DNA of 64,000 nucleotides. Origin: Eledone cirrhosa (taxonomy: Eukaryota). The stretch spans positions 176,328,001-176,392,000 of the forward strand of contig OZ024742.1 of assembly GCA_964016885.1 (NCBI GenBank), given 5' to 3'. Within the stretch, counting starts at the first letter, position 1; the number at the start of each line of letters is the position of its first letter. The notes beneath the pieces are model-generated. The model worked only from the letters and a program-made list of their open reading frames with translations. It was not told the DNA's origin and did not search any database. A program made the translations under genes and the position numbers. Positions 3,554 through 50,977 of the stretch are shown here, piece after piece.

Positions 3554-3563
3554 TATATATATG

Positions 3564-6596: not shown

Positions 6597-6603
<7 letters not shown>

Positions 6604-6929
6604 ATATTAACAAATGGAAACTATATTGACATACCCTGAAAAATGCAACATTCACAGTTGAGACTCCAACCGTGAAGATTGCATTTTTCAGGGTATGTCA
6701 ATATATATTTATAAAACTAATCTATATTATATTTTATCTGATGAAGTCGCACTATAATCTGCCTTGGTTGCCCTTGAAATATGTATAATGAAATAAATAT
6801 GGTTTTATAAATATAGTCTCTATTTGTTAATATATTGTATATTTACTCCAATTAATTTGTTGAGTGCTTTATATCAGTTATAAACATATTTTGCTTGTTG
6901 TATCCCAACAAATTAAATATAACCTCTCT

Positions 6930-6930: not shown

Positions 6931-7000
<70 letters not shown>

Positions 7001-7003
<3 letters not shown>

Positions 7004-7484
7004 CAAAGGAATTGTGGTAAGGAGCCAAATGGACCATAACGCACCAGAGTACTCAATACTTATGGTAGTAGAGTGGGAAATAGGAAAAAGTATGACGCCG
7101 ACGGCAGAGCTCAAGCCGTTTCAATGGCTATTTCTGGACTAAATTAGAATGTTTAGCATGGTGAATAAATAGCCGAACTTGTCAAGGGGATACTTCCTTA
7201 TATGGGAAGATTGTAGTTGTCAAGAGAATTGGTTAAAATTTGTTGTAAACACAAATAAGTCTATCATGGCATTTGGTGGGAGGTAGGGGTGGCTGAACTT
7301 GCCTGTAGAACTCGGGTCGTTATAGGGTTTGAGGGCCAGGTAAGTCCTACGCTATCTGTGTTTGCATGCGGTTACCAGTTCATCTTTCTTGTTTAGGAGT
7401 TGGTCCTTCTAAAACAGCATTTGTAATGTTTCCTCCGAGCATAAGTTACACGGGCGGCGTCCTCACGTGTAAGAGTTAGCTCTT
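7001..7484 (-). mobile_element. 5'-truncated PLE remnant (GIY-YIG C-terminus + 3' UTR with decayed HHR)
   Basis: Minus strand 7484-7340 reads RANSYT*GRRPCNLCSEETLQMLF*KDQLLNKKDELVTACKHR, the same CxLCxxE...LN...CxHR tail as ORF 18152-19462. The 3' end abuts (TA)n. Confidence 0.8.
7088..7195 (-). ncRNA. Degenerate hammerhead ribozyme
   Basis: Core reads TTGACAA instead of CTGACGA. Helix II GGCTATTT/AAATAGCC, GAAA-CGGC...GCCG-TC helix III, helix I AAGTATCCCC/GGCGTCATACTT. Confidence 0.55.
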
Positions 7485-8014
7485 AACCTCTGTATTAGCT
7501 TATTGCCTCTATTGTTGTTATTGTTGTCTTATTCATGCACTATTTGTTATTGATGCTGTGAAAGCTAAACAACCTCCATGATTCGAACTAACCATCCCTA
7601 CATCTACTATAGACCACTTAAATAACGTATCCACTTTACACCACATAAAGATTACCATCCTCACTACAATGAAACACACACACACACACAATATATATAT
7701 TCTCTTCATCTGAACTTGCAACCCATACTCCCACACACACACAAAACACCCATACACACACATAACCCCCCCCCACACACACACACATAACACCCATACA
7801 CACACACATACCCCCCCCCACACACGACTCCCTCCCCCATTTCTACTAATAGAATTACTTTCCTACACGCATATATACACACACACAAAATATATATATT
7901 CGCTCCCACACAAACATAACACCCATACACACACACACACATACACACACACAACTGCCTCCCCCATTTCTACTAACATAATCATCTTCCTATACACACA
8001 CACAAGTACACAAA

Positions 8015-10929: not shown

Positions 10930-13369
10930 AACTATGATGATAGATATAATGACAACCTCTTAGAGAAACTATTCTTCAACCCAGCTGACAAAACATATAA
11001 GATGGGTAATATTTATCCTTTAATAAAAGAGTTTGCATACCACAACAAATAGCTGGCGAGACAGAGGCACAGTTCACCATAGCTAGAAATAAGATTAGAC
11101 AAATAGTAGACCGGTACACTAAGAGACAGAGCAGACCAGAGGTCCAACAACTTGTGAGGAAAACTGTAGAAGCCTTGGTTAGCCTCAAGCAGTGCACAAG
11201 GGATGGTGAGGTAGTATGTCTACCCACGGATAAGTCTGGTAGAATGGCAATAGGCAGCATGCCGAACTACATCAAGGCTATGCAACCCCACATCGCCAAC
11301 ACGAGCGAAATTGCACAGCAACTACATGATGGGAGATGGAAAATCCTCAACGCTCACATGATGATGTGGACCGACATTCTAAAACCAAGCAGACGCACTG
11401 CCAACAACTTCCAGGCGTCTAACAATGTCATACCACCCTTGTATGGGCTGCGCAAAGACCACAAGACAGTCGACGACCCGACAACAGGACCACCAACAAG
11501 ACCCGTATGCGGAACAAATACAGCTAGCAACTACAGGATCTCCTACTTCCTCTCAATGGTTATACACCCCATAATCAAGATGTCCCCAGATGTATGTGAC
11601 AGTACAGAGGACCTCCTCAGCAGGATCAGTGAGTGCAACAAAAACAGGAACCTATCCAACTGCATAATAGGCAGCATGGATGTGGTATCACTGTACCCAT
11701 CCATTAACATTGATTTTGCTGTGGAAAAATGTGTGGAGATGATCAATGAGATGAGGTGGAGTTCTGCGACGTCGACACAGACGAACCGGGCCTCCTACTT
11801 AGACTTACCTACGACACTGACTACCTAGACAGCCATGACCTTAGACGTTTCTGTCCCAGTAGACCCATAATAGGTAGACCCCCCACCCACCCCCCACCAT
11901 GACGTCAATGGCTAAAAAGACTCCCATGGGAAGGTGGATGGGTGGACCAAAGCTATACGGACCCCCAAAAACAATGATCAGGTAAGAAAAATGGTCGCAC
12001 ATGCAATAGCGGCTAGTATCAAAACTACCCTAAAGGGCCACATATTCAAGTTGAACGAGAAGATCTACACCAAAAATGAGGGAGCAGCCATTGACGTCAG
12101 CATAGCTGGTGACGTTGCCAACCTTTTTATGGTATGGTGGGAAAGGAGACTTAAAGTTCTCCTTAATGAGAGCTCCATAGACCTCATCATGTACTCTCGT
12201 TACGTAGACGACATCAATATTGTAATAAGAACATCCCCCGCAACAGAGCACTAACAAGTTTGATTTAGAACGTAGCACAATGGAAAGCATCCAGCAGATA
12301 TCTAATTCCATACACCAGAGTATAACTGTAACTATCGACTACCCTTCCAAACACCCTAACAATAGACTACCTGTATTAGACACGGAACTCTGGATTAACA
12401 CTATAGACCAGGGAGCCCAAATTCTCCACTCACACTATGCTAAACCCATGACATCCAAATACCTGATACTCAAAAGCTCAGCAATGTCCAGTAGTGCTAA
12501 GTTTAATATTCTGATCGCAGTCTTGGTATGAGTGATGAGGAACGTGTCCCGCATGTGCGACCCAACAGAAATGGAAAGACACAGCCAACACTTCATCAAC
12601 CGCATGCAGTTCTCTGGCTACAACCAAAGAGACAGAATCAGAACATACGAAGGAGCCACGGAGAAGTATAAGACCGATATAGAACTGGACATGAAAGGAA
12701 TCTGCTCATTATACAGGGGCAAATCATGGAATAGCCTAGATAGGGCTAGACATAATATAGGGAAAGCCACCTCATGGTACGACAACCAGAGATACCAGAG
12801 TGTCATTTTGTGGACGCTACCCCTGGAGGGAAAATAGCTAACCAGTGTAGAAAGGCCTTGAGAAAGACCCACTTAAAGATTAAGGTGGTAGAAAATCAAG
12901 GAACCACCATAAAATCCCTGATCAGCAAAACCTATCGTTTTAACGAAACCCATTGTACTTATAGGAAATGTATCATATGTAAGGTAAACCTCTGGATACA
13001 CTGTAAAACTAGAAACGTAGTCTATAGCATAAGATGTACAGAGGGTACTTGCAGAAACATGACAACAACATACATAGGCGAGATAGCTCGTAGTATAGGT
13101 GAAAGGATAGACCAACAGTATGTGGGGGGGGGGGGGGACTAAAAGGACGAAAAAACGGTTCAGTACTATACAAACATGCCAGACAACAACACGACGGTAA
13201 CATAGACACCATAGAAATTAGAATAATATCTAAACATAGAAATAACCCAGCAGATAGGCAAATCAGAGAGGCCAGTGAAATAGAACTTAGAAGGCCAAGG
13301 CTAAACAGAAAAAATGAATGGAATAACAACAACACCCAAACAAACAACACTGACCACAAGAGAAGTATA
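10930..13369 (+). pseudogene. Penelope-like element ORF (RT + Cys linker + GIY-YIG), frameshifted; Neptune/Nematis-like
   Basis: TDKSGR, LYGLRKDHK, RPVCG, SMDVVSLYPSI, YSRYVDD, LPVLD, C-x4-C-x2-C...C linker, VVY...YIGE, LYKH...H, RQIREA, LNRKNEW across ORFs 11154-13142 and onward. Clade assignment is uncertain. Confidence 0.9.
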
Positions 13370-13665: not shown

Positions 13666-13846
13666 ATATAAGTGTTTGTGTCTATGTGTCTATATTGTAT
13701 CTGTATTTCTGACCGTTGGTCAGTCAATGGCAACATTGAGGACCGAATAAATTAAATTAATCGATATAAAAGACACAGAAGCGAAAAGCGAAAACCAACC
13801 AAACAGTGAGTGTGTTCTGTTATTAAATCTGGCAATATTACACAAA

Positions 13847-14031
13847 TATGACCCTGACGGCAGAGCTCAATCCGGTTCGACGGCTATATCGAGTCCACAA
13901 ATAGCCGTCGAAACGGCTTGAGCTCTGCCGTCGGGGTCATACTTTTTCCTACTACCCACTCTACGCCCCTAAGTATTGAGTACTCTGGTGCGTTATGGTC
14001 CATGTGGTTCCTTACCACAATTCTTTCGTTA
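13847..14031 (+). mobile_element. Fold-back PLE-terminus fragment (same family as 7001-7195)
   Basis: IR 13847-13887 / 13901-13941 folds back inside HHR helix II and keeps GAAA-CGGC...GCCG-TC. The tail ends in (TA)n. Confidence 0.75.
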
Positions 14032-14158: not shown

Positions 14159-14358
14159 CAATTCCTTCATTATATATATATAAATAATATAAAAGTTTCT
14201 CGTATAATATATATACATATATATATATATATAAACAAACTGAACAGCCTGAATTGTTATGCCGTACGGTGTTAAGGCAACCACGTCACCTTTTTGTTCA
14301 ACACTGACACAGGAAAGTATATACTTTCGAACGTTCAACTATCTGGCAGATGGGTATA

Positions 14359-14399
14359 CGGTGCTGATGATAGCTAACAAGCTTGAAACTAGTACATCG
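14359..14399 (+). ncRNA. Minimal type-I hammerhead ribozyme
   Basis: CGGTG-CTGATGA-TAGCT AACA AGCTT-GAAA-CTAG-TA-CATCG, with palindromic ACTAGT helix III as in PLE minimal HHRs. Confidence 0.85.
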
Positions 14400-14552
14400 T
14401 TCCTGTATCAGTGTTGAACAAAAAGGTGACGTGGTTGCCTTAACACCGTACGGCATAACAATTCAGGCTGTTCAGTTTGTTTACAAACGAACAAAGCGTC
14501 GTTATAATAAGCGTCCGCTAAACTGATACGTACATATATGTATGTGTACCTG

Positions 14553-14592
<40 letters not shown>

Positions 14593-14829
14593 TGCTACTG
14601 TACGTCTGTATACATATATGTATGTACGTATACACACATACTTACATTTAAGTAAGTGCCGTACTAAGAGTGAGAAACGAAATTTCGTTTTCATTTTATT
14701 TCAACTTATCGTTTTCGGTATGCCTGACCGACTTAGCTCACTCGATATGCAAATTAGGCTGCTCAGCCGTTAATTTTCATAAGTAAAGTATATACTTTCG
14801 AACGTTCAACTATCTGGCAGATGGGTATA

Positions 14830-14870
14830 CGGTGCTGATGATAGCTAACATGCTTGAAAGTAGTACATCG
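14830..14870 (+). ncRNA. Minimal type-I hammerhead ribozyme (second copy, 2 substitutions)
   Basis: CGGTG-CTGATGA-TAGCTAACATGCTT-GAAA-GTAG-TA-CATCG. Confidence 0.75.
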
Positions 14871-15022
14871 TTCCTGTGTCAGTGTTGAACAAAAAGGTGA
14901 CGTGGTTGCCTTAACACCGTAGGCATAAAAATTCAGGCTGTTCAGTTTGTTTACAAACGAACAAAGCGGCGTTATAATAAGCGTCCGCTAAACTGATACG
15001 TGCATATATGTATGTGTACCTG

Positions 15023-15078
<56 letters not shown>

Positions 15079-15126
15079 TGCTACTGTACGCCTGTATACA
15101 TATATGTATGTACGTATACACACATA

Positions 15127-16402
<1,276 letters not shown>

Positions 16403-16544
16403 ATTTATATATATACATGTAAATTTATATTTAAAATTGTTGGGTTACAACTAGTAAATATTTATAACTGATATAAAAGCACTCGACAAATATTTGGAGT
16501 ATATTTACAACATTAAATAAATGGAAAACTATATTTATAAAACC

Positions 16545-16621
16545 ATATTTATTTCATTATATATATTTCGGGGATATCATATTAACAATATGCTATGCCT
16601 TCATCAGACAAAATACAATAT
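16545..16621 (-). ncRNA. Type-I hammerhead ribozyme (left arm)
   Basis: Exact mirror of 22646-22722. Confidence 0.8.
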
Positions 16622-16975
16622 AAACAGTTTTATAGATAAATATATTCAACATACCGTAATAAACATCAACTTCATTTGAAGAGGTTTACGCTAGCAGTGA
16701 AAATACAGAGAGAAAGAAAGAGAGAGAGAAAAGAGGGAAATAAGAAAGAAAGAAAGACAAAACAAAGAAAAGGAAGAAAAAGAAGAAAAAGAAAAAGAAG
16801 AAATGCATGGGACAAAATAGAGAGATGGAAAAATAGATAAAGCGAAGAGCTTCATGTAAAGAGACAGAAAGAGATATATATATATAGAGAGAGAGGAAAT
16901 AGAGATAGATACATATATATATATAGAAAATTAGGTAGTGGGAGGTCATTTTGAGTAAGTGTATCAATGATGCAT

Positions 16976-17010
<35 letters not shown>

Positions 17011-17935
17011 GCTCAAGTATTAATGTAAGGGAGATATATAGAGAGATATAGAGAGATATAGAGAGAGAAAAAATTTAAAAATAGCCAGACATATTCGAGG
17101 CGTAGAAAACCCTATGTTTTAATGTATTAGTATTTATAAAACTTACACTATATTGTAAATATCAGTATTCCTGAATGAAACAAGTATTCACAATGCGTGA
17201 AAATTCATTATCTTATGTTTAGTTTTTAAAAAATTCATATGTCTATGTGACAGCTACAAACATCAATGTGAATCCAACTGATTCACTCCGCAAATTCTAA
17301 GTTACCGGAAAACATTCTCAATGTGGTATAAAAATTTGAGCGTATTATTATTCTTGCGATTACTCTACAAGATTATCTATCAAGCAGAAATAGAGAGCAG
17401 ATTTCAATATACTAATCGAAAATATATATTATATTATAAACAAAGATAACAATAATAATGATAATAAGTAAAAATATATAAAAATATAGAATATAGAATA
17501 GAAAACTAAAAAAAAAAAAAAATATTACGAAAGAATATTACATAATAAAAATATTGCATATTAAAAATACTACGTATTAAAAATATTACGTATTAAAAAT
17601 TTACATATAAAAATATTAAAAATAAAAATTTACATATAAAAATATTAAAAATAAAAATAAAATAAAATAAAAAATAAAAATATTATAGAATACTAAAATA
17701 CTAAAAGAATAAAAATAAAAATAAAAATAAAAATAAAAATGAAAATAAAAATAAACCACAAAGAACAACCCTTGAAAGTTAATTGACAATATATTGCCAA
17801 GTTCATTACAAGACAAAGCCAAAAATTATCTATCAAATCACATCTAGCAAGGAATATCGCAAAAAAAAAGATTATGATATGTCTACATATGCTCCTATAT
17901 TTAATATATAAGTTTATCTAGTGTAAGGTTAATTC

Positions 17936-17967
<32 letters not shown>

Positions 17968-18151
17968 GAGCATCGGCTTTTAGGGTAGCTTAATTTTTCA
18001 TGAGGAATGTTTAGATAAAAATGTTTAGATAAAAATAAAAATAAATAAAATAAAATAAACAATAAAAAGAGTAAAAAGAGGGAATCAAAGATTTAGGAAT
18101 CAAAAGATTTATCGGCTAGTTCTCATATAAATATAAATCAAACTAAATATA

Positions 18152-20007
18152 CTACATTTTAAATTTAAATTTATATTTAAACGTTGAGTTTAATCTATGT
18201 TTGCAACAACTGAATAAATTTGTCCGTAGGTTAAGGGAATTTTTAGATTTTAGTATAAAGAATATCTCCTCTGCGCAGAGGTCACATGTCTCAGAGGATG
18301 AATTAAAAGGAATCCCTCTTGAGACTATATTCCAAGCCGTCGAATATCTAACGTTATCTAGCTTAAGTTGCCAGAGTACCCCTGATAGTGCCGTTGAAGA
18401 TTTTTTATTTGGATCTGTGAAAGAATTCTTGTGGTTATTATAGCGAAGTTTAAATTCCGTCGATGTGGAGCCGACGTAGTTAAAAGAATTAGAGTCAGTA
18501 TTAACATTACAATTGTATACTATATTTTTAACTAAGCAGTTGTTATTTAACGGACATTTAGATCTATCTCTACAGTTACATTTGTTAACTTGTATATTAT
18601 TTATGCTATTATCAGTAGGTTTTAAGTTCCTATTATTTATTCTATTAATATTTTGTGCTAAATTTTTGGTGGATGAGTAGGTTAATTTAATTGTATGCCT
18701 ATTGAAGATTGAGTGGTACCTATGTGTTCTAGGGAAGCGATTATCAAGAGCTTTGAAAAATAATTTAGCGATGTGGGTTTTAATGTTTAGTGAGAAAGGG
18801 GGGGCAAACCAAATTATGTTCCTAGTTCTATTTCTTTTTTGTCCTTTGGAATTATTGTAATGCTTTCTATTATAGTTGTTAATGTTGTTGCCGTAATTAA
18901 AAAAGTTGTTACTTTGTTTAGTTTGTTTATCATTATCTATGTACACAATCTTATCAGCATACCCTGCCCTAGCTAGTGCATCATTATAGTATTGGGCCTT
19001 TTCGTCAAAAATCTTTCTATTCGACGAGATCCTAGAGATACGTTTTTGGACTGAGTTTACTATAGTGTTTTTGACAGATCTGGGGTGGTTAGAGTTAAAG
19101 TTGACATAGTTTAAGTTTTCATTCAACTTGTGAAAAGGATAGTGGAGACATGTGTTGAGATTTAATGTTATATCTAGGAAATTGACTATTCTATGGTTGT
19201 TCTCAATTTCTATTTTAAGGTTAAAGTAATTAAAAAATTTTGTAATTTGTTTACATTTTCTATTTAGTTCAGGGTTATTATTATTAATAAGTAAAAGCAT
19301 GTCATCCCTATATAAACCTCCGGTAGTACCAGGTATTTTCCTATGTAGCGAATTGATTAAAAATAAGCCCACAAGGTCAGTTACCTGAGCTGAGTCGGTA
19401 GATCCCATAGTTATGTCAAAAATTGCTATCTCTATCTGCTCTGGTCCATAATTTGTCATCAAATTCTATCAAAGTTTTCCTAGCCGATAATATAATATGC
19501 ATTTCTTTGCTAGTTAGGTCAGTATGTTTGAATGCGTAATTTAGTGCCTTATTTAGTAGACTAGGGGTAATAGAAGAATAATAGTTAGCTATATCAAGTT
19601 GAATAAACCTATTATTATTGTCATATTTAATTTGCCTAAACCACTCAACAACCTCTCCAGTTCCCTTCCGCAAGCTCAGGTTAGATACACAATCCAAGTT
19701 CTTAATTTGCAGTATCACCCTGTCAAGAATGTTTTTGCTTAATTTGCCCAGGTCCGATTTTGAAGGTGCGATCAATCTAACTGGCAGGTCAATTTCAAAA
19801 TTCCTCTTGTGGTCCTTCATATTGATCTTCGGTTTCCTGGGCACGAAAGGTTGTGTTCTGTTCTCAATTTCCAACTCATGCATTATACAAGATGCTTCAA
19901 CATTCATTTTCTCAAGTTCGGCCTTATCTGCTACCTTGTATTTTTTCCTCAGCTCTTTCAGTATGAGGCCATTATACATGTCTTTCCGCACTCCATAGAG
20001 GTTGTTT
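18152..20007 (-). CDS. PLE reverse transcriptase + GIY-YIG endonuclease, 5'-truncated, one frameshift (extra T at 19418-19422)
   Basis: KINMKDHK, VRLIAP, FIQLDIANYYSSI, MGSTDSAQV, LYRDD, NFLDIT, C-x-C-x5-C-x5-C linker, IVY...YVG, FKLRYNNH, CDLCAEE...LNLR...CKHR. Confidence 0.92.
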
Positions 20008-21086
20008 ATTACTTTAACCTTAAAATAGAAATTGAGAACAACCATAGAATAGTCAATTTCCTATATATAACATTAAATCTCAACACATGTCTCCACTATC
20101 CTTTTCACAAGTTGAATGAAAACTTAAACTATGTCAACTTTAACTCTAACCACCCCAGATCTGTCAAAAACACTATAGTAAACTCAGTCCAAAAACGTAT
20201 CTCTAGGATCTCGTCGAATAGAAAGATTTTTGACGAAAAGGCCCAATACTATAATGATGCACTAGCTAGGGCAGGGTATGCTGATAAGATTGTGTACATA
20301 GATAATGATAAACAAACTAAACAAAGTAACAACTTTTTTAATTACGGCAACAACATTAACAACTATAATAGAAAGCATTACAATAATTCCAAAGGACAAA
20401 AAAGAAATAGAACTAGGAACATAATTTGGTTTGCCCCCCCTTTCTCACTAAACATTAAAACCCACATCGCTAAATTATTTTTCAAAGCTCTTGATAATCG
20501 CTTCCCTAGAACACATAGGTACCACTCAATCTTCAATAGGCATACAATTAAATTAACCTACTCATCCACCAAAAATTTAGCACAAAATATTAATAGAATA
20601 AATAATAGGAACTTAAAACCTACTGATAATAGCATAAATAATATACAAGTTAACAAATGTAACTGTAGAGATAGATCTAAATGTCCGTTAAATAACAACT
20701 GCTTAGTTAAAAATATAGTATACAATTGTAATGTTAATACTGACTCTAATTCTTTTAACTACGTCGGCTCCACATCGACGGAATTTAAACTTCGCTATAA
20801 TAACCACAAGAATTCTTTCACAGATCCAAATAAAAAATCTTCAACGGCACTATCAGGGGTACTCTGGCAACTTAAGCTAGATAACGTTAGATATTCGACG
20901 GCTTGGAATATAGTCTCAAGAGGGATTCCTTTTAATTCATCCTCTGAGACATGTGACCTCTGCGCAGAGGAGATATTCTTTATACTAAAATCTAAAAATT
21001 CCCTTAACCTACGGACAAATTTATTCAGTTGTTGCAAACATAGATTAAACTCAACGTTTAAATATAAATTTAAATTTAAAATGTAG
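20008..21086 (+). CDS. Inverted duplicate of PLE thumb + GIY-YIG region (no RT catalytic core)
   Basis: Protein identical to the 18152 ORF from YFNLKIE onward except NFLDIT to NFLYIT. The N-terminus of track ORF 19809 is antisense RT read-through. Confidence 0.88.
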
Positions 21087-21270
21087 TATATTTAGTTTGA
21101 TTTATATTTATATGAGAACTAGCCGATAAATCTTTTGATTCCTAAATCTTTGATTCCCTCTTTTTACTCTTTTTATTGTTTATTTTATTTTATTTATTTT
21201 TATTTTTATCTAAACATTTTTATCTAAACATTCCTCATGAAAAATTAAGCTACCCTAAAAGCCGATGCTC

Positions 21271-21305
<35 letters not shown>

Positions 21306-22254
21306 AATTAACCTTACACTAGATAAACTTATATATTAAATATAGGAGCATATGTAGACATATCATAATCTTTTTTTTTGCGATATTCCTTGCTAGATGT
21401 GATTTGATAGATAATTTTTGGCTTTGTCTTGTAATGAACTTGGCAATATATTGTCAATTAACTTTCAAGGGTTGTTCTTTGTGGTTTATTTTTATTTTCA
21501 TTTTTATTTTTATTTTTATTTTTATTTTTATTTTTATTTTTATTTTTATTTTTATTCTTTTAGTATTGTAGTATTCTATAATATTTTTATTTTTTATTTT
21601 ATTTTATTTTTATTTTTAATATTTTTATATGTAAATTTTTATTTTTAATAATTTTATATGTAAATTTTTAATACGTAATATTTTTAATACGTAGTATTCT
21701 TAATATGCAATATTTTTATTATGTAATATTCTTTCGTAATATTTTTTTTTTTTTTTTAGTTTTCTATTCTATATTCTATATTTTTATATATTTTTACTTA
21801 TTATCATTATTATTGTTATCTTTGTTTATAATATAATATATATTTTCGATTAGTATATTGAAATCTGCTCTCTATTTCTGCTTGATAGATAATCTTGTAG
21901 AGTAATCGCAAGAATAATAATACGCTCAAATTTTTATACCACATTGAGAATGTTTTCCGGTAACTTAGAATTTGCGGAGTGAATCAGTTGGATTCACATT
22001 GATGTTTGTAGCTGTCACATAGACATATGAATTTTTTAAAAACTAAACATAAGGTAATGAATTTTCACGCATTGTGAATACTTGTTTCATTCAGGAATAC
22101 TGATATTTACAATATAGTGTAAGTTTTATAAATACTAATACATTAAAACATAGGGTTTTCTACGCCTCGAATATGTCTGGCTATTTTTAAATTTTTTCTC
22201 TCTCTATATCTCTCTATATCTCTCTATATATCTCCCTTACATTAATACTTGAGC

Positions 22255-22293
<39 letters not shown>

Positions 22294-22645
22294 ATGCATC
22301 ATTGATACACTTACTCAAAATGACCTCCCACTACCTAATTTTCTATATATATATATGTATCTATCTCTATTTCCTCTCTCTCTATATATATATATCTCTT
22401 TCTGTCTCTTTACATGAAGCTCTTCGCTTTATCTATTTTTCCATCTCTCTATTTTGTCCCATGCATTTCTTCTTTTTCTTTTTCTTCTTTTTCTTCCTTT
22501 TCTTTGTTTTGTATTTCTTTCTTTCTTATTTCCCTCTTTTCTCTCTCTTTCTTTCTCTCTGTATTTTCACTGCTAGCGTAAACCTCTTCAAATGAAGTTG
22601 ATGTTTATTACGGTATGTTGAATATATTTATCTATAAAACTGTTT

Positions 22646-22722
22646 ATATTGTATTTTGTCTGATGAAGGCATAGCATATTGTTAATATGATATCCCCGAA
22701 ATATATATAATGAAATAAATAT
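22646..22722 (+). ncRNA. Type-I hammerhead ribozyme (right arm)
   Basis: CTGATGA at 22660, helix II with CATATT/AATATG core, GAAA at 22698, TATATA-TA, ~13-bp helix I ATATTGTATTTTGT/ATGAAATAAATAT. Confidence 0.8.
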
Positions 22723-22873
22723 GGTTTTATAAATATAGTTTTCCATTTATTTAATATTGTATTTATATATATATATATTTATATATTTATATATATATAT
22801 ATTTATATATACATATATATATATATATATACATTTATATATATATATATATATTTATATATTTATATATATT

Positions 22874-33376: not shown

Positions 33377-33925
33377 TATCATCATCATCATCATCATCAT
33401 TTTACATCCGCTTTTCCCTGCTTGCAAGGGTGGGACGGGTCTTATTCGGCACAGCATCTCTCCACTCGTCACGGTCCTTCGTCATCTCCACCGTGAGCTT
33501 CAATCATCTGAGGTCGGTTCTCACCACCTCCGCCCATGTTTTTCGTGGTCTACCTCTACCACATCTTCCTTCAACTGGCATTTCCTGGCACTTCTTCACC
33601 CATCGGTCATCCTCCATGCGCATCACATGTCCATACCACCTCAGTCTCCTCTCCCATACACTACATTCTATCCCTCTCAGACACAGTTTCTCTCTTAACA
33701 CATTTATGCTGGGTCGTTCACGCACATCCAACGGATCATGCTTGCATCATTTCTCTCCAGCTGTCGCATATCCTCTGCAGTTACTGCCCATGTCTCACTA
33801 CCATGCAGCATCGCGCACCTCACACAGGCATCATATAACCAGCCTTTCGTACGCAGGGAGAAACCCTTCTTCGTCAACAGAGGAAGCAGCTCCCTAAACT
33901 TCTTCCAACCTGTCCTTATTCTAGA
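33377..33925 (-). mobile_element. RTE LINE 3' fragment (family A)
   Basis: ERRLRWYGHVMRMEDDRWVKKC...GRGRPRKTW and a (GAT)n tail at 33378-33400. Confidence 0.9.
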
Positions 33926-35123
33926 TACATATATATATGTATGTGTGTGTGTGTTTGTGTGTGTAAATATATATATGTATGTGTTTGTATATATAGATAT
34001 ATGAACACATACATATATATATACAACTTAAGCCAAAATCCCTATTTGGGGGGATATAAGCTAGTCCAACTAAAAAAAGGATGTTTTACTTGTAGACTTT
34101 GGCTTAACCATTTAGCATTTAAACTGGCCGTATCCTGTCAGAATTCTCTCATTTCTTTCTGTTCAAACCAGCTATAACTGGCTGCTCAAACTTATGTTAA
34201 GTTATTGTTTTCAAATAATATCAAAATCTTGTAGATTCGATATTATGTGAGATATTTATCTGAAATAAAGTGTTTACCATGAAAATAAAATAGTAAATAT
34301 AGAATAATGTAAATTTTAAAAGGTTAAGTTTGATATGTGTAATTACTTCTCTGAGTAGATAATTTATTAATATATCTTATCCTTTCATTGAGATATTAGA
34401 GACAGATCAATTTATAAATTGATTTATATATATATGAATGAAGATGATGTTGATGGTATATACATATACACACACACATATGCATACATACACACACACA
34501 CACATACACATATATATATATATTTATAAAAGTGTGTGTGTGAGTGTGTATGTATGCATATGTGTGTGTGTATATATGTATATACCATCAACATCATCTT
34601 CATTTTAACGTCCATATTCCCTGCTAGCAAGGGATGGACAGGTCATCACAGACCAAACCATCCTGAAAGAAGGCCACAGATCTCCTAGACAGGCCAGGGA
34701 TCTGCATTTTACTTATGTACAGTGTCACTTTCTAGCGACTGCACAGGTGTGTTTGTCATGTTATTGGCACAACTGAGGGTCCTACCAACCATTGTTTGGC
34801 AACTTTTCTATGGCTGGATGCCCTTCTTATCACCAACCACTGTACTGGATGTGTTTATCATGTAGATCACTTCTGTCATGTCCTTGACATGACTGAAAGA
34901 TCCTCCCAACCCTTTCTTTGGCAAGCCCTCCACAACGGGTTTCCCTACGCATCAACAACCACTTCACAAGGGGAAAGTGGCTAGGAATGTGTGTGTGTAA
35001 TGGGGGTGTGTAATGAGTATATGATGATGATGTTTATATACACACACAAATATGTAAATAACATCATCATCATCGTTATTTATACATGTTTTCCATGCTT
35101 GCATGGTTTGGACTGGTCCTTAA

Positions 35124-35179: not shown

Positions 35180-37670
35180 TCATCATCATCATTGTTTAAC
35201 AACTATCTTCCACACTAACATAGGTTAGATGGGAAATTGTCCCGCTTGAGGCAAGATTTGATCGGGTGACCGTATCTCGCTCGTATAGGAATGTATCTAG
35301 CAAGTTTTCTATGGCTTTTTCTACATACTGAGTGCTTTTTGTCGTGACCCCTACATGACCACTTTAGTGTGGACTGGATGTTCTGTGGTACCAACATTAC
35401 TTTAGAGCGAAAGGTTGGTGTGTGTTGAAGTGTGAGGATGGAGTATGGGTAGTGGATTGGGGTGCATATTTGGTCAAGAGGTGCCTACTGACTTTAGGTT
35501 CAACTTCGTAGGTAAGGGAAGGCGGGTCTTCTGTATTACTGTGTAGTGCCAAAGGTCTTTTAGAAGGTTGGTATTAGTAAACATATTACATGTAATATTT
35601 ATAGAAAGAATAAGAATGGTTGTGCATGTTTATACAAAGTTTTATTTCATAGAAGTGAATAATGGAACAATACATATACTTTACCATGAGTAGTGAGTAG
35701 GCTGCAGGCTCTTAGGCTGTTGGTGAGTTGCATCTCGACTCCAAGACTGGAGCGTGGAAAGAAGAGAGAGAGAGAAGGCAGAAGTCATCTCTTCAGCTGC
35801 GGCAAGTGGAAACTGAGAGAGAGTATGGTCTCACGCTCACAAATATATAGTCTCCATGGGGACCTATGTCCGTTTAGCTCATGGATGTGACACTAGGGGT
35901 CACGACCGTCATAAAGGGATGCAACTCTTATAAGTTCTGAGTTCCAGCCCTAGGGGCCACTAAAGTCTCAATCCAGAGACATTAGCTTAGAGAGCTGTAA
36001 GTGCGCAAGGTCAGATTTTATCTTGTCGTCCCAGGTTTTTCTGGGTCTACCTACTCCGTAGCTACCATCAATTTTGATCGCCTTGCACTTTTCTATACAG
36101 CTGTCGTCGTTCATGCACATCACATGACAATTACCAATGTAATCTCCTCTCAAGTAAACTACATCTGATCCCTCTTATTCCTAATTTCTCACTTAGTTCA
36201 TTTATGTTTTGTCATTTGTGTATATTACTATTACACATCCAACGAAGCATGCATGCTTCATACCTTTCCAACCTGCACAGGTCCTCTGCACACAATGCCC
36301 AAGTCTCACTGTCATGTAACATTGCTGTTTGTATGCAGGCATCATGCAATCTGCCTTTCATTTTTAGAGAGAAACCATTTTGTGGGCAACAGCGGTATTA
36401 GCTTTCTGAACATTTTCCCTCCCGTTCTAACTCTGGCTATTGTACTTTCAGAGCACCCTCCTCCACTGCTGATTTTGTCACCCAGGTAACGGAAAGTGTC
36501 TACTATTTCTATAGGACCATCTGGGCAGTTGAAAGAGCTAGTATTTAGTGGGCACTTGCTACCTACTGCGCCTGAGCATCGGCCACGTATAAAATCTACA
36601 TTCTTAAATAGCTTGCCTGTGATCGCACTACATCTTTTATGTACCCATAATTTACATTTGGGGTATAGAATGGAATTTCTACCTACTCCTTTCCTACACA
36701 CTGATCATGGCCATTTCCCAGAGGGCACCTGTGCTCTATTTTCCTTTCTACATACTAGAACTTTACTCTTAGAGAAGTTAACATTAAGGCCTTTTGATTC
36801 TAAGCCATGCTTCCATGCTAAGAATTTCTTCTCTAGTTCAGCCATTGTTTCAGCTATGAGAGTTAGATGATCTGCATATAGAAATTCCCATGGGCAACCA
36901 GTCTTAAACTCTTCTGTTATAGCCTGTAGGGCAATAATAAACAGGAGGCAGCTAAGGACAGAGCTTTAATTAACACCTATTTTATGCTAAATTCTTCACT
37001 ATATTCAGTGTTAATTCTAACCTTGTTGACTGTCACTCTATACATGGCTTGTATAGCTCTCATGAGCCATTCATCTACTCCTAGTGTTTAAGAGCCCCCC
37101 AGATAATGGAGCGGGGGACTCAGTAAAAGGCTTTCTCCAAGTCAACAAAAGCTAAGTAGAGGGGTTTACTTTTAGCTAGGTGCTTCTCCTGTAGTTGCAA
37201 TACAAGGAAGAGAGCATCCATGGTACTTTTATCTGGCACAAACCCGAACTGCATTTCATCTAGATCAATTCGGTCTCTAATGAGTTGTGCAATAACTCTT
37301 TCCTTTCTGTGACCTTCATGACCTGGTCAACTAACTTAATGCCTCTATAGTTTTCTCTATCTAGAGCATCTCCTTTGCCCATGTAGCTGTTAACGATGAT
37401 GCTGCTATGCCAGTCATTTGGTATGACCCTATTCTGTATTACATTGTTTACTATCCGGGTGTCCATAGTATGTCCCACCACTCCAGATGCTTTAAAAATC
37501 TCAGCAACTATCCGAAGGCCCAGCTGCCTTGCCTGTCTTCATATCTTTGATTGCCTTACTTATTATTAACTTGCACAACTGGTCCCTCTATTGGATAGAT
37601 TTGGGGCAAACTATATTTATCCCATTCATTCTCCTCATTTGGTAGTCTCATGTAGTGACACTTCCAAGCT
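35180..37670 (-). mobile_element. Decayed RTE LINE, interrupted at 35559-35964
   Basis: Fragments GKGDALDRENYRGIKL, CRKGVGRNSI..CKLWVHKRC, FRYLGD, GRPRKTW. 3' UTR and (GAT)n tail at ~35180. Confidence 0.9.
35559..35964 (-). mobile_element. 406-bp solo-LTR-like insertion with TTTAG...CTAAA ends and 4-bp TSD GTCT
   Basis: GTCT at 35555-58 and 35965-68. Removing the insert restores the RTE sequence. TATA-like and AATAAA motifs on the minus strand. Confidence 0.7.
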
Positions 37671-41030: not shown

Positions 41031-43329
41031 ACTACACTTAACCCTTTCATGGCTGCATTTCTAATGAAATACTATTTAAATTAATTAATAATGAATTCTG
41101 AAGGATTTACTAAAATTACTAATTATTTTATGACTTAGATTGTAACTTAATGTCAGTTTCTTATATAGAATTATGCTGGAAGATTTTAATTGGACACTTT
41201 TAAAATGGGTGGTTTTATTTCATAGACCAGTGCTTGTTTTGGCTGGATTGGTAACAAAGGTGTTAAATTGTTCATTACTTTCCATCTTTCCCTTTTCCAT
41301 ACCCATTGCTGCTGAAGCATACTGAATAAGAGATTGATACCAGGCTTAACAACATTATGTACCGGGGTTCATATGGTTAACTAAATCAAGGCAATCTCCC
41401 AGCATGGTTGCAGTTGAAAAAGAACTGAAGCCAGTAGAAGAATAAAAGTATAAAGGTATTGATTATATTCAGATTATGAGATTCTGTGTTTGACTACACT
41501 GCACAGAACCTTGGGTAAACCTCTTTGCCATAGCCTTGAGCAACGAATCTTTGTGTGTATATTTGGGTTGAAGGAAACCATGTGGAATCTCTTGGATGGA
41601 TTGTACCTAGAATTCAAAAGTCCATATTTGTCTCACAGCCTCACCCTTTGCCTGCAAATTAATAAATTATATTAAAAGTATAAGTGATTCAGCCACATAC
41701 ACAATAATTTAATGTTGTTCTGTCTATTGAATAACCAGAACTCTCATCATCATCCTCAACATCATTTTAAATATGCTTTAAAATTATAATGCTGATGATG
41801 AAACCTAACAAAAGACATAGTTGTGTAGCTGTATATAAAATTCCTTGCAGGCATGGATTGTTGTTTGTTTGTTATCTTTTATGATAGATCCTAATTTTGA
41901 ATAATAATTATATACTAAATGCACTCATTATGTAAAACATGTTAAATATTCTTAATAAAAAAAAACATAAAGACTTGTTTTGGGAAGCCATTGTAGAAAC
42001 TTTCGTCTTCTCATCTTACTTCCCACTGATTACATAATTTATTTCAAATATTACCATTAATTTTAATATAAACCATTTTGATTTCATCAAAACAGAACCA
42101 TGAATCCTACTTCATTGTCCATAATTTAGACAGTTATCATCATATCTAATTTCCAAAATATTTCCATATTACTTTAATTTACTTTTAATTAAAGTCCATT
42201 TTTATTTTGTTTTTGGTTTCAATATAAATACTAATTAGAGTAATATGATAATTAAAGTACATAATTGGTATTATAGAAATGAAATTTCCCCTGAAGTGAT
42301 GAAATGGAAAGAAAATATTCTCAAATATTTATCCTGTAAATTTTATATTCAGAAATGTCCAGAGATAGTGTGAATGGACACAGTAGTTAGAGAGTTAGAT
42401 AGAATGCTTTGTGATGTTCATTCTAGATCTCTGTGCTCTGCTTTATTCCTCTTTTGTACATGTAATTATAATGAAATGTACTATATGTCAATTAATTAAT
42501 TAAGAATGTTGATGGTACGTCCTGAAATGATTAATTATTTAATGACTAAGATAGTAACATAACAGGGTTCTTATATAAAATTATGTTGGAAGATTTGATC
42601 TGACATAGAAACCCTTAAAATTTGGTGGCTTTGATTTATAAAATCAAAGCTGGTTTTGGCAAAATTACTATCAAAAAGGGTAAATTCTGCCCAAGGACAA
42701 AGTTGGCGTCAATTGGAGTTAATTAATCAAGCAACATTCCAATACTGGAGTCAATGATTCTTCATTCGCACTTCCTTGTTTTCCTTCTCACATTATCTCT
42801 TTCTCCCTCCCTCCCTCTCTCTCTATGTATATATATATGTATATATATATATATATAATAGAAACACACTTAGAATATCCTATTCTACAACTCCCAACCT
42901 CACACACAATATCATAGCATCTAGCTTAGCTAAATTAAGTAGCCGTAGTAATATAAACGATCCTAAATTTAGTTCTAGCTGCAATTGTATTAATAAAAAC
43001 TACTTTCCTCTAACCTATCAAGCAAGTTTATGAATATAAGGTTAATACACCAATTACTAGTAAAGCTTACATAGGGTTAACAGTCAATATCTTTAAGCAG
43101 GGTTTATACTTGCAATTTCATTCATATTGAAATCCTTTAAGAAGGAATATGACTTCACTTTTGGCCTATATCTGCACGTAAAAGGCAATATCATCCAATA
43201 TAGGTTACACTGGCAAATTTTAGTTAAAGCTAGATCCTATAACAACAATAAAATACCTTGTGATCTTTGGGCTGTTGAAGCCCTAAAAATCCTTTAACCC
43301 CAACCAATGTATTTTAAACAAAAAATCTG

Positions 43330-43822
43330 AGGCAATTTAGCTTGTAAATCTAAACTGAATAAAACATTCTTATTTTACACCAGCATAACATCTGATGACT
43401 CTTGTCAACAACATGACAGGTTAGTGACGAAAATCTCATAGGTGTGCCAGGATCAAGTTCCTGTTTGATTCCTTTGTGATAATGCTCAGCTACATACATC
43501 AATGATTACCCATGAGAAGCTGCTGAAGCTAAGTTGGGAAGTTATGCTTTACCTGCCTTATTCACCTGACCTTGTGCCTCAAGACTATCAACTTTTCTCT
43601 CAATGAGCAATGCAATGATTTTTGCCAATGAAGATAAGTTAAATAGGGGGTTGATGGAATTCTTTGCGTTGAAGCCAGAAGTATTCTACAGAGATGGAAT
43701 TATGTGCCTCCCTCAACGATAGTTGATGGCAATTAATTTGATTTGTAACATTTTCTTAACGTTAAAAAAGCCCCAAACAATACAAATTTGGAACATGGCG
43801 AGAACATTCTATCCAACCTACC
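43330..43822 (+). pseudogene. mariner transposase C-terminal relic with right TIR
   Basis: From 43478: DNAQLHT...WEVMLYLPYSPDLVPQDYQLF, then FFALKPEVFYRDGIMCLPQR. TCCAACCTA TIR-like end. Confidence 0.85.
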
Positions 43823-44138: not shown

Positions 44139-44178
<40 letters not shown>

Positions 44179-44324
44179 TTTTGAGTTTATGTTGGTTGCA
44201 TACCAACACCTCAGTATGCAGGCTGGAGCACTCGACGAAGTGCGCAGGTTGGTTTGGTTACTCCGGAGTATTGTAAAATAAAGTTAAATAAAAGTCAAAT
44301 GATTAAAATTTAGCTTCGTTTATT

Positions 44325-44379
44325 ACTGCTATATATATTTCAGTGACAGCCATCTTTGGCTGTGACCTCTTCAGGCAGT
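44325..44379 (-). ncRNA. Type-I hammerhead ribozyme
   Basis: Mirror of 44623-44677. Confidence 0.85.
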
Positions 44380-44622
44380 TTGAATTAGTATGGTATAGAC
44401 AAGTACATATGTTGTTTAGGTGTATGATATTGTCAATACTCTGATATGCCCAGTTCCTTGTTGGGTTGTTAATTCACTGGGGAACTGGAGTCATACTGGA
44501 GTCATATATGACTCCAGTTCCCCAGTGAATTAACAACCCAACAAGGAACTGGGCATATCAGAGTATTGACAATATCATACACCTAAACAACATATGTACT
44601 TGTCTATACCATACTAATTCAA

Positions 44623-44677
44623 ACTGCCTGAAGAGGTCACAGCCAAAGATGGCTGTCACTGAAATATATATAGCAGT
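44623..44677 (+). ncRNA. Type-I hammerhead ribozyme
   Basis: ACTGC-CTGAAGA-GGTC ACAGCCA AAGA TGGCTGT CACT-GAAA-TATATA-TA-GCAGT. Confidence 0.85.
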
Positions 44678-44721
44678 AATAAACGAAGCTAAATTTTAAT
44701 CATTTGACTTTTATTTAACTT

Positions 44722-44805
<84 letters not shown>

Positions 44806-47620: not shown

Positions 47621-47659
<39 letters not shown>

Positions 47660-47783
47660 CAAAGAGATATTTAATTTGTTGGTAATTCTATAAATATATT
47701 TATAACAGATTCGAAGCACTCGACAAGTTTTCTGGAGTATAATATCAATGCTATTAATAAATGGAAACTATATTTATAAAACC

Positions 47784-47853
47784 ATATTTATTCTATTATA
47801 TATATTTCAAGGGTACCAAAACTTTGGTACGCTCTCATCAGATAAAAAACCAA
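47784..47853 (-). ncRNA. Type-I hammerhead ribozyme
   Basis: TCATCAG at 47835-41 and TTTC at 47805-08. Mirror of 47945-48014. Confidence 0.8.
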
Positions 47854-47944
47854 AATTTGTTTTCATAAATAGTGACATACCCAGGAATCAGACTTTAACA
47901 GTTCAGGTCTGATTCCTGGGTATGTCACTATTTATAAAACAAAT

Positions 47945-48014
47945 TTTGTATTTTATCTGATGAGAGCGTACCAAAGTTTTGGTACCTTTGAAATATATAT
48001 AATAGAATAAATAT
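47945..48014 (+). ncRNA. Type-I hammerhead ribozyme
   Basis: CTGATGA at 47957, helix II GTACCAAA/TTTGGTAC, GAAA at 47990, TATATA-TA, helix I. Confidence 0.8.
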
Positions 48015-48059
48015 GGTTTTATAAATATAGTGTCCATTTATTAATATCATTGATATATA

Positions 48060-48652
48060 TCATAGATTGAGTTAGAAACTCAAAATAGTCTTTTTAAATA
48101 GCTCAAAGAAGAGAATCTTTCTGAGCCGTGTAATATAATTGAATATATGAGAGAGATGAACTCAGATGTAAATATATAAATCAATAAAAATAACAAACCT
48201 ATATCGGGCAACAGCCTTTGATACCCAGACAGACTTAAATCTGTTTTGCAACAATTATTAATAGAAAGCCACAATTCCTGTGCTCTTCAGCGAATATTCA
48301 GAAAATTCGTACCTTTCACTTCAAAGGATCTAAGAAGACTGAAGGATATGCTGATATAAAAGCACATGTCGCAGCGACTAGCAAGTCTCATACTCATGCC
48401 GCTAAAAATAGCAGCCGGGTTTATGAGGAATTGTGGCTTTCATTTAATAATTCTTGCGAAACAGATTTAAGTCTGTCTGGGTATCAAAGGCTTTTGCCCG
48501 TTATAGGTTTGTTATTTTTATTGATTTATTACTTTAAATCGAGTCAGGCAAACTATATTGTTTTAAATTAGTATTTTTTCAACCTAGCTAACCTGGTCAT
48601 TTGCAATTGGAACACATGTGTTCATCTCTCTCTCATATATTCAATTATATCA
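48060..48652. mobile_element. Older fold-back HHR element (family N3)
   Basis: IR arms 48176-48279 / 48427-48530 and 48134-48162 / 48620-48650. HHR on the minus strand at 48220-48298 (CTGAAGA-GCA...TGC-AAAA-CAGAT..GTCTG-TC). The right arm retains CGAAA. Confidence 0.75.
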
Positions 48653-48653
48653 T

Positions 48654-48692
<39 letters not shown>

Positions 48693-48715
48693 CACACACA
48701 CATATATATATATAT

Positions 48716-50977
48716 AAGATCTGGAAGCTGAAAGTCCCCTCAACCAGTAACAGATTTAAAGATATTTTACTCAACGCCTACGACAGTAAAGAAGAACAGA
48801 TAGAGACATTTAACGTAGAAGAGAACTGGGAGTTCCTAAAAAATAACTTACTAGAGGCGACGGATGAGGTTTGTGGCTGGAGTAAGACCTCAAGCAGGAG
48901 GAGAGTGACTTGGTGGTGGAACAATAAGGTAGATGAAGCAGTCAAGGCCAAGAGACAGGCATGGAAAGAATGGAAGAACGGGGGGAGCAGGGTACATTAC
49001 ATAGAGACCAAGAGGGAAGCTAGGCGACAAGTATACTTAGCTAGGAGGGAAGCAGAGGATAGAAAATTCAAGCATGTTTTACAACGTGAGGACCAGAAAC
49101 AGGAGGTATTCAAGATTGCGAGGCAGTGTGTCAGAGATAGTTGTGATGTCATTGGAGAGAAGTGTATCCAGAATGATAAAGGTGAGCTTGCCCTCACAAG
49201 TGCTGAGAAGAAAGATGCATGGAAGAGTCATTATGATAGATTACTAAATGAGGAGAATGCATGGGAAGAAGAGACCCTACCCCACGTAGACCCTATAGAG
49301 GGACCAGCAGTACAAGTCAGCGGCAGCGTAGTAAGTAAGGCAATCAGAGATATGAAGATAGGGAAGGCAACCGGTCCATCGGGTATAGCTGCCGAGATGC
49401 TGAAGGCATCTGGGTCTGTAGGTCACACTATAACCACACGTATCGTTAACCAGGTAATACTAGAGGGGGCCATACCAAAAGATTGGTGCAGTAGCATCAT
49501 TGTCAACTGCTACAAAGGTAAAGGCGATGCACTAGATAGAGGAAACTATAGAGGTATAAAGTTGATGGACCAGGTCATGAAAGTAACAGAAAGAGTTATA
49601 GCACAGCTGATTAGGGACCGGGTGAATATAGACGAGATGCAATTTGGGTTTGTACCAGGGAAAGGCACCACTGATGCGCTCTTCCTTGTGAGGCAATTAC
49701 AGGAAAAGTACCTAGCTAAAAGTAAGCCACTCTACTTGGCATTTGTCGACCTTGAGAAAGCCTTTGACAGAGTTCCACGTGCAGTAATCTGGTGGGCTCT
49801 TAGAAAACTAGGAGTAGATGAATGGCTTGTGAAAGCGGTACAAGCCATGTATAGGGGAGCAGTCAGCAAAGTTAGGATTGGCAATGAGTATAGCGAGGAA
49901 TTTAGCGTACAGGTTGGGGTCCACCAGGGCTCTGTTCTTAGCCCTCTCCTGTTCATCATAGTCCTGCAGGCAATAACGGAGGAGTTTAAGACCGGATGCC
50001 CATGGGAACTCCTGTATGCTGATGACCTCGCACTCATAGCTGAATCTATGGTAGAACTAGAGAATAAATTCCAAACCTGGAAGCAGGGACTAGAGAGAAA
50101 GGGCCTCAAAGTCAACATGACAAAGACTAAGGTCCTTATAAGCAGACGAGAAAACAGAACCCAGATCCCCTCAGGGAAATGGCCTTGCTCAGTATGTAGG
50201 AAAGGTGTAGGTAGGAACTCCATTCTTTGCCCCAAATGCAAACAATGGGTACACAAGAGATGTAGCGGGATCTCAGGAAGCTTAATTAAGAATGTAGGAT
50301 TCACATGCAGCAGCTGTGCTGAAACAGCAAGCAAACAGCCACAGGAAACAAGTACCACCAATCTCTGGGAGGGCCCTGTAGAAACAGTAGACAGCTTCTG
50401 CTACCTAGGTGACCGAATTAGCAACGGAGGTGGGTGCTCAGAAAGTACAATAACTAGGGTAAGAACGGGATGGAAGAAGTTTAGGGAACTACTACCACTG
50501 CTAGCTGCAAAAGGCTTCTCCCTCAGAATGAAAGGCAGACTGTATGATGCGTGTATCCGAACAGCGATGTTGCATGGTAGTGAGACCTGGGCGCTGAAGG
50601 TGGAAGACTTACGTAGATTAGAGAGAAACGAAGCCTGCATGCTCCGATGGATGTGTAACAGTAATATACGTGAACGACAAAGCATAAAGGAATTGAGAGA
50701 GAGACTGAGCATAAGAGGAATCAAATGCTGCGTGCAGGAGAGGCGGTTACGCTGGTATGGACATGTGATGCGTATGAAGGATGACAGCTGCATAAAAAGG
50801 TGCAGAGCACTAGAAGTTGATGGAAACCGCGGAGTGGGGAGACCCAAGATGACTTGGGATGAGGTGATAAAAGCCGACCTTACCCAACTACACCTCTCAA
50901 AGTCAATGACACACGACCGTGACTTCTGGCGTCACGCAGTAATACAGGGTACCCGACCTCCCATGGGTACATGCTGA
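48716..50977 (+). CDS. RTE LINE ORF (5'-truncated; RT with inserted PHD-type finger), uninterrupted
   Basis: KGKGD..NYRGIKL, QFGF..GKGTTDA, FVDLEKAFD, VHQGSVLSP, LLYADD, C-x2-C...C-x2-C-x4-H-x2-C...C-x2-C, FCYLGD, LHGSETW. The track ORF start at 48653 is microsatellite. Confidence 0.95.
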   Translation, partial: KIWKLKVPSTSNRFKDILLNAYDSKEEQIETFNVEENWEFLKNNLLEATDEVCGWSKTSSRRRVTWWWNNKVDEAVKAKRQAWKEWKNGGSRVHYIETKREARRQVYLARREAEDRKFKHVLQREDQKQEVFKIARQCVRDSCDVIGEKCIQNDKGELALTSAEKKDAWKSHYDRLLNEENAWEEETLPHVDPIEGPAVQVSGSVVSKAIRDMKIGKATGPSGIAAEMLKASGSVGHTITTRIVNQVILEGAIPKDWCSSIIVNCYKGKGDALDRGNYRGIKLMDQVMKVTERVIAQLIRDRVNIDEMQFGFVPGKGTTDALFLVRQLQEKYLAKSKPLYLAFVDLEKAFDRVPRAVIWWALRKLGVDEWLVKAVQAMYRGAVSKVRIGNEYSEEFSVQVGVHQGSVLSPLLFIIVLQAITEEFKTGCPWELLYADDLALIAESMVELENKFQTWKQGLERKGLKVNMTKTKVLISRRENRTQIPSGKWPCSVCRKGVGRNSILCPKCKQWVHKRCSGISGSLIKNVGFTCSSCAETASKQPQETSTTNLWEGPVETVDSFCYLGDRISNGGGCSESTITRVRTGWKKFRELLPLLAAKGFSLRMKGRLYDACIRTAMLHGSETWALKVEDLRRLERNEACMLRWMCNSNIRERQSIKELRERLSIRGIKCCVQERRLRWYGHVMRMKDDSCIKRCRALEVDGNRGVGRPKMTWDEVIKADLTQLHLSKSMTHDRDFWRHAVIQGTRPPMGTC

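Follow-up and report, generated by a model that had tools for sequence, protein, structure and literature searches.

A 400-bp palindrome of Penelope-like 3' ends in Eledone cirrhosa and its probable origin by fold-back at a UTR hairpin

Within a 64,000-nt stretch of Eledone cirrhosa DNA (the window), positions 47658-48056 hold a severely 5'-truncated insertion of a Penelope-like element (PLE) of the Hydra clade. We give odds of roughly three in five to the reading that this palindrome consists of two PLE 3' ends placed head to head in (TA)n by a single insertion event, in which the new strand folded back at a 3' UTR hairpin that probably existed beforehand. The hairpin is likely to be a facilitating hot spot and not an obligatory switch. 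A first-pass annotation had seen in it a programmed snap-back site that generates MITE-like palindromic retroelements; the PLE derivation, a probably native hairpin and fold-back as the most likely route are retained from that proposal, but not the programming or the MITE-like character. The product itself is most likely ordinary, inert and dead on arrival.

Anatomy and family of the palindrome

Compared with its own reverse complement, 47742-48056 is 94.6% identical over 317 nt (E 4e-138), with the centre of symmetry at 47900 (Table 1). The layout is that of two head-to-head, 5'-truncated copies, each arm comprising only the last 150-250 nt and devoid of an ORF. The tail is homologous to 16427-16500 and to about 6843-6920, and is missing from the short arm and from the one-armed copy at 3381. 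An artefact of assembly is unlikely, given the several differences between the arms and the agreement of the tail with other copies. TA repeats occupy both sides of the insertion, so that the edges of a target-site duplication cannot be delimited.

Table 1. Features of the palindrome and of its relatives in the window
Feature	Position	Strand	Basis
(TA)n target microsatellite, left flank	47624-47657		sequence
PLE tail of about 84 nt, confined to the long arm; sense-oriented 3' end of the element	47658-47741	-	homology to other copies
Long arm, 3' UTR/pLTR of a Hydra-clade PLE, inferred first strand	47742-47893	-	alignment
Putative minimal type I hammerhead motif, long arm; core start 47841	47789-47849	-	descriptor scan; stem II folds
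Imperfect 13-nt central loop, centre 47900; homologous to the 3381 hairpin loop	47894-47906		
Short tail-less inverted arm (inverted pLTR); ends in a TA-rich stretch of the element itself	47907-48056	+	
Putative minimal type I hammerhead motif, short arm; core start 47957, predicted cut after 48001	47949-48009	+	descriptor scan
(AT)4, right flank	48053-48060		sequence
One-armed, tail-less copy of the palindrome's subfamily	3381-3558	+	
Hairpin in the one-armed copy (loop centred on 3400), with a 35-nt pyrimidine tract before it	3381-3422	+	folding
Older inverted copy; long tail-bearing arm at right, centre 6663.5, short arm without hammerhead	6597-6920	+	
Head-to-head Hydra-clade PLE insertion of 6.3 kb; minus-strand long arm with tail	16420-22761	-	

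The hammerhead descriptor matched at 47957 (+), 47841 (-), 22660 (+) and 16607 (-), in each case as part of an opposite-strand pair and below Rfam thresholds; the two cores of the palindrome lie 116 nt apart on opposite strands. At gathering thresholds Rfam gave no match anywhere in the window, hammerheads included, and in its E-value mode it returned generic hairpin matches only, the best being mir-9223. A microRNA identity for 47860-47940 was rejected, since this best model reached 50.6 bits against a cut-off of 53; the sub-threshold match, with 18 of 22 letters identical in one stretch, is probably a chance hairpin match.

A profile search placed four loci of the family in the window, namely the palindrome, 3381-3558, 6597-6920 and both ends of 16420-22761, and found there no second copy of the 400-bp unit. 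All four loci have (TA)n at their ends. The core of the palindrome is 94% identical to the 3381 copy, 82-85% to the 6597 copy and 79-80% to the ends of the 6.3-kb element. Its description as a miniature with the long-arm/short-arm layout of the 6.3-kb ends was thus borne out by the palindrome, the one-sided tail and an identity of about 79%, although these identities make it a miniature of a related subfamily and not of the exact 6.3-kb element.

The 6.3-kb element supplies the coding context. Its long arm contains an RT-GIY-YIG ORF that is 5'-truncated and frameshifted near 19420, its short arm spans 20002-22761, and the inversion falls inside the ORF, the arms ending at 19236 and 20002 around a 765-nt spacer. 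Pfam gave no match for this ORF, which has 681 relatives at E<=0.001 (best 2e-104). Translation and alignment reveal RT motifs, a C-terminal GIY-YIG-type domain, a CxCx5C linker, a terminal CxxC plus CxH and no CCHH; RWK and DKT are present in longer homologues, the window ORF being truncated at the position of DKT. According to the available text of PMC8557442, the Hydra clade is marked by a CxCx5C linker, the lack of CCHH, CxxC plus CxH near the C-terminus, a sense hammerhead near the 3' end and (TA)n targets. The linker, the absent CCHH, CxxC plus CxH, the hammerheads and the (TA)n targets assign the family here, so that by these defining motifs the 6.3-kb element and its kin are Hydra-clade PLEs. 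Neptune and Naiad were rejected for the ORF, the endonuclease being C-terminal, CCHH absent and the linker of the CxCx5C type. Since the hammerheads have the same sense as the ORF, each arm of the 400-bp element is an outward-pointing 3' end and the extra segment is the PLE 'tail'.

The window family differs from the published clade in its long (about 1.6 kb), AT-rich 3' UTR, and it looks uncatalogued, its hammerhead being unlike every Hydra motif in the available supplement table of PMC8557442 on comparison by eye. The same source lists one Hydra-clade family, Penelope-13_HM, with an attached inverted copy.

Other retroelements share the window. A degraded Hydra-like endonuclease fragment runs from a TA repeat at 42842-43375 (+), with a hammerhead-like core at 43392, and fragments of another PLE-like ORF lie at 11010-13142 (+), with a DKSG motif, a cysteine-rich linker and a GIY-YIG-like end but no Pfam match; we take the latter to be Neptune-like. 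An 801-aa open frame at 48572-50977 (+) with RT and PHD-finger matches belongs to a LINE, presumably RTE-like, with degraded relatives at 1-449, 33384-33927 and 35980-37669.

The hairpin at the turning point

In the palindrome as in the one-armed copy, 57-59 nt separate the centre (47900 and loop centre 3400, respectively) from the hammerhead core downstream of it. The two 13-nt loops are identical at 10 of 13 positions and both depart from Watson-Crick pairing at +/-4 and +/-6, from which shared ancestry follows. The resemblance that the first-pass annotation had noticed extends to position: the centre falls exactly on that hairpin.

The 3381 hairpin is real and of modest strength: it folds at -7.1 kcal/mol as DNA and at -14 as RNA, 4 of 200 shuffles being as good in either case. 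No centred hairpin in the 300 nt before the hammerhead is stronger than the one at this site (top 1.3% of 300 positions). In the 6.3-kb element the corresponding site, which is read through in both arms, likewise has the best local hairpin (top 2%, -4.2 kcal/mol), but that rank is inflated by unfoldable pyrimidine tracts, and the fold is not significant against shuffles (36/200 as good as DNA, 58/200 as RNA).

On balance the comparisons between copies, the local rank of the 6.3-kb site among them, make it fairly likely that the 3381 hairpin is native to the PLE 3' UTR. A tract with 32 pyrimidines in 35 positions precedes the site at equal spacing in the 3381 copy and in the read-through 6.3-kb element, and only 0.3% of window positions qualify for such a tract. 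Moreover, the DNA upstream of 3381 was the best of 156 window stretches when compared with the 6.3-kb 3' UTR in sense (62, 62, 52, 52; next 45; antisense 36). This AT-rich DNA, reaching to about 2000, is probably the diverged 3' UTR of the 3381 copy. Neither tblastn with 120 homologues nor a profile search revealed a remnant of an ORF upstream of 3381, so that the assignment as UTR depends on similarity of low complexity; comparison with the 6.3-kb UTR by tblastx produced low-complexity matches only. Inside the probable UTR, at 2899-3099, sits a SINE-like repeat of about 185 nt with a 13-nt target-site duplication, which has at least eight relatives in the window.

The opposing reading, that the 3381 copy is a former palindrome which lost one arm, its loop being shared with 47658-48056 by inheritance from one ancestral fold-back, we hold to be very improbable. 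It would account for the tail-less end, which is typical of short arms, and for the lack of a detectable ORF upstream. It would also fit one stem pair of the 3381 hairpin that differs from the 400-bp palindrome on both sides, the stem mirroring a private variant; copying from the other arm, as a fold-back relic, requires one event where a native hairpin requires two, and to that extent the pair counts against a native hairpin. Set against these points are the pyrimidine tract and its spacing, shared with the read-through 6.3-kb element, the sense-strand likeness of the upstream DNA to the 6.3-kb UTR and, weakly, the loop: read against the long arm the 3381 loop differs by three transitions, and against the other orientation by three transversions, on a background of 7 transitions in 16 changes, so that it reads weakly like the long-arm orientation. 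Both arms of the 400-bp palindrome carry derived changes relative to 3381, which is consistent with decay after insertion.

Turning points of other inverted copies

The centres of inversion are scattered: they precede the hammerhead by 13, 57-59, 74, about 83 and 127 nt, and others fall inside ORFs. Scatter of this kind is what the first-pass annotation had itself named as refuting its proposal, and it speaks largely against a programmed turn. The 6597 copy, said to turn at the same relative position as the palindrome, does not do so: its centre is 74 nt from the hammerhead and about 8 nt upstream of the loop-homologous centre at 6671. An internal deletion of about 120 nt has removed the hammerhead from its short arm (6597-6630). 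The ends of the missing stretch match the base of a long stem enclosing the hammerhead, as if the polymerase had jumped over a folded single strand, and short arms at 14233 and at 7722-7797 of a further locus (L008, below) likewise have no hammerhead.

Other families in the window turn elsewhere. One, at 44178-44728, turns 127 nt upstream of its hammerhead, and the joins of 13836-14030 and 14233-14530 rank in only the top 38% and 30% as centred hairpins, one adjoining a 14-bp palindrome and the other falling within the loop of an 8-bp stem. Among the short inverted copies for which a one-armed reference is at hand, one of five turns exactly on the strongest hairpin, another within 8 nt of it, and three at no notable centred hairpin.

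The element at 44178-44728 is a second hammerhead-bearing palindrome, from another PLE family and young, its arms being 100% complementary over 222 nt; it has a tail of about 95 nt at the left, with two short motifs in common with the tail of the 400-bp palindrome's family, and an 11-nt tandem duplication at the centre. At 14233-15136 a hammerhead-bearing unit of about 470 nt forms a partial head-to-tail tandem, retrozyme-like, preceded by an inverted arm of about 80 nt without hammerhead and joined at a 14-bp palindrome that is also present in the direct copy at 14785. The short inverted copy at 13836-14030 has a one-armed relative at 7000-7480 (-), following the C-terminus of a Hydra-like endonuclease; neither contains a clear hammerhead core.

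A scan of a prokaryotic genome collection, in which 10 of 23 candidate stretches were confirmed, added nine loci (L001-L009). The contigs come from bacterial bins; the presence in them of Hydra-clade PLEs together with TA microsatellites makes an animal host their probable source. Inversion falls inside the ORF at four of the nine (L001, L004, L007, L008), a proportion enriched by the way in which the loci were found. L008 also carries two short two-hammerhead palindromes between TA repeats, with a tail on one arm; their turns precede the hammerhead by 13 and about 83 nt, and where the first of them turns, an ORF-linked copy in L009 that is 97% identical to it shows no hairpin. Of 10 hammerhead-upstream regions from these loci, 2 contain a hairpin of at least -7 kcal/mol between -45 and -80, and on that count we rejected the idea that the clade as a whole has a hairpin 45-80 nt ahead of the hammerhead. 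Palindromes without hammerheads were seen at L009 6529-6690 and L001 7658-7859, and three L009 hammerheads match the Hydra-2_aMil motif in the available supplement of PMC8557442, by eye.

MITEs of DNA transposons are short and non-coding, fold into a long hairpin and insert at TA targets. The 400-bp palindrome shares these traits, the TA site included, but membership was rejected: the 84 nt at its left end have no mirror image, and the homologous coding element encodes an RT/GIY-YIG protein and not a DNA transposase. With a single copy of the unit in the window as well, the 'MITE-like' label of the first-pass annotation was given up.

A stronger version would make the palindrome the retrotransposon counterpart of a MITE: a selected 3' UTR stem-loop would set the point at which reverse transcriptase turns, and the resulting non-autonomous palindromes of about 400 bp with two hammerheads would be remobilised as a unit and so propagate themselves. 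It would suit this version that the family's two short inverted copies in the window have their turns no more than about 8 nt from one hairpin, and likewise that the tail and both hammerhead motifs are retained. We nevertheless consider both the selected, programmed turn site and the self-propagating family unlikely, given that the four family loci include a single copy of the unit, that the two short copies differ in their centres and share 82-85% identity, and that the 6.3-kb copy reads through the site. The two L008 turns, one of them without a hairpin in its 97% identical reference, and the 2 of 10 regions with a hairpin of sufficient strength weigh on the same side; in addition, in a transcript of the unit the hammerhead would presumably be hidden within a duplex of 150 bp. 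Were it true, such a programmed family would offer a natural readout of Penelope second-strand synthesis.

Routes to an inverted copy and what they may tell

In the fold-back that we favour, the RT/GIY-YIG protein of an autonomous relative would nick (TA)n, and reverse transcription would start at the tail's outer end, as the in vitro behaviour of an anole PLE suggests. After about 250 nt the UTR stem-loop would be copied, whereupon the self-complementary end of the cDNA may leave the RNA and prime on itself. The second strand would then run back along the cDNA, stop at the inner tail boundary and join the target through TA microhomology, and the short arm would be tail-less because the second strand stops and joins there. 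Other copies would read through the hairpin, or turn at other places where a few bases of microhomology allow it.

The fixed end of the short arm is more than simple fold-back by itself explains: it is identical in the 400-bp palindrome, the 6597 copy and the 6.3-kb element, and the one-armed 3381 copy ends there too. This common end is what would be expected of twin priming, in which a dimeric PLE protein would nick both target strands and two cDNAs would grow from two RT start sites bounding the tail; being of like polarity, these could be joined only at self-complementary sequence and would therefore anneal through the hairpin. In the available text of Frangieh et al. 2024 (PMC11167929), the anole PLE Poseidon_Ac has such a pair of RT start sites, both target strands are extended in vitro and the protein is predicted to be dimeric. 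Twin priming is thus a serious rival to fold-back, if one of rather low probability.

What separates the two is the ownership of the central spacer. Twin priming predicts a spacer on either arm, whereas in five of five clear cases (the 6.3-kb element, 13836-14030, 14233-14530, L007 and L008 6370-6653) it goes with the tail-bearing arm, p being about 0.03 under a symmetric null. The 6597 copy, 44178-44728, L001, L004 and three L008 elements were left unscored, two of these being tail-less; the spacer of the 400-bp palindrome itself is tentatively placed with the tail-bearing arm. On these very small numbers the rule, which is modestly new, favours fold-back over twin priming, though twin priming would be rescued if the first cDNA were systematically longer. 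Also on the side of the favoured reading, arm mismatches cluster at the centre in the 400-bp palindrome (2/6 against 6/147) and in the 6597 copy (4/17 against 2/53), p being 0.03 in both comparisons, which were made post hoc.

Several elements of this account are already published, namely the inverted pLTR with a tail, self-priming at junction palindromes and hammerhead pairs lying near each other on opposite strands. The available text of PMC8557442 (Craig et al. 2021) and PMC8969392 presents inverted, 5'-truncated copies that have a tail on one side as typical of PLEs, the former giving a tail length of 30-40 nt. For Adineta, the accessible part of PMC3846280 (Arkhipova et al. 2013) reports palindromes of 18 and 38 bp, placed either at the junction of the inverted copy or at the 5' ends of pLTRs, and takes them as a sign of self-priming on an antisense template; it and PMC8557442, as available, call the origin of tandem and inverted PLE ends unresolved. 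The inverted-pLTR EN+ PLE insertions of these two sources share with the present element the head-to-head 5'-truncated copy, the tail at one end and the junction palindromes. They differ from it in that the arms here are only 150-250 nt long and without ORF, that the tail measures about 84 nt and not 30-40, and that a one-armed relative maps the centre onto a specific UTR hairpin.

In Schistosoma mansoni, opposite-strand pairs of minimal type I hammerheads, 100-700 bp apart, have been linked to PLEs (Cervera and de la Pena 2014, PMC4209133, as available). These pairs match the arrangement seen here, with its 116 nt, but arms, tail and junction, described here, are absent from the available account of them. 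Poseidon_Ac resembles the window family in its two fixed 3' ends bounding an optional tail and in its AT-rich targets, although it belongs to another clade, and the available text of PMC11167929 does not treat inversion. Non-LTR retrozymes, as presented in the accessible part of bioRxiv 10.64898/2026.07.22.740005, are likewise PLE-derived, non-coding and furnished with type I hammerheads; they form head-to-tail tandems with hammerheads on the same strand, whereas 47658-48056 is head to head with hammerheads on opposite strands, and membership was rejected on that ground. In the literature searched, which left aside repeat databases and most subscription papers, we found no paper that places an inversion centre on a native UTR hairpin or that describes a palindromic non-autonomous PLE family.

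In TA tracts, palindromes of this kind will probably be mistaken for MITEs or microRNA hairpins during annotation, as the sub-threshold microRNA match illustrates, and if transcribed they may be sources of double-stranded RNA. Tiny inverted copies that have a one-armed reference provide a cheap genomic test of PLE end formation, and both the association of spacer with tail and hairpin-biased turning can be counted on thousands of copies, setting cDNA fold-back against twin priming. The coincidence of centre and hairpin, together with the spacer rule, thus offers small, testable clues to the PLE mechanism.
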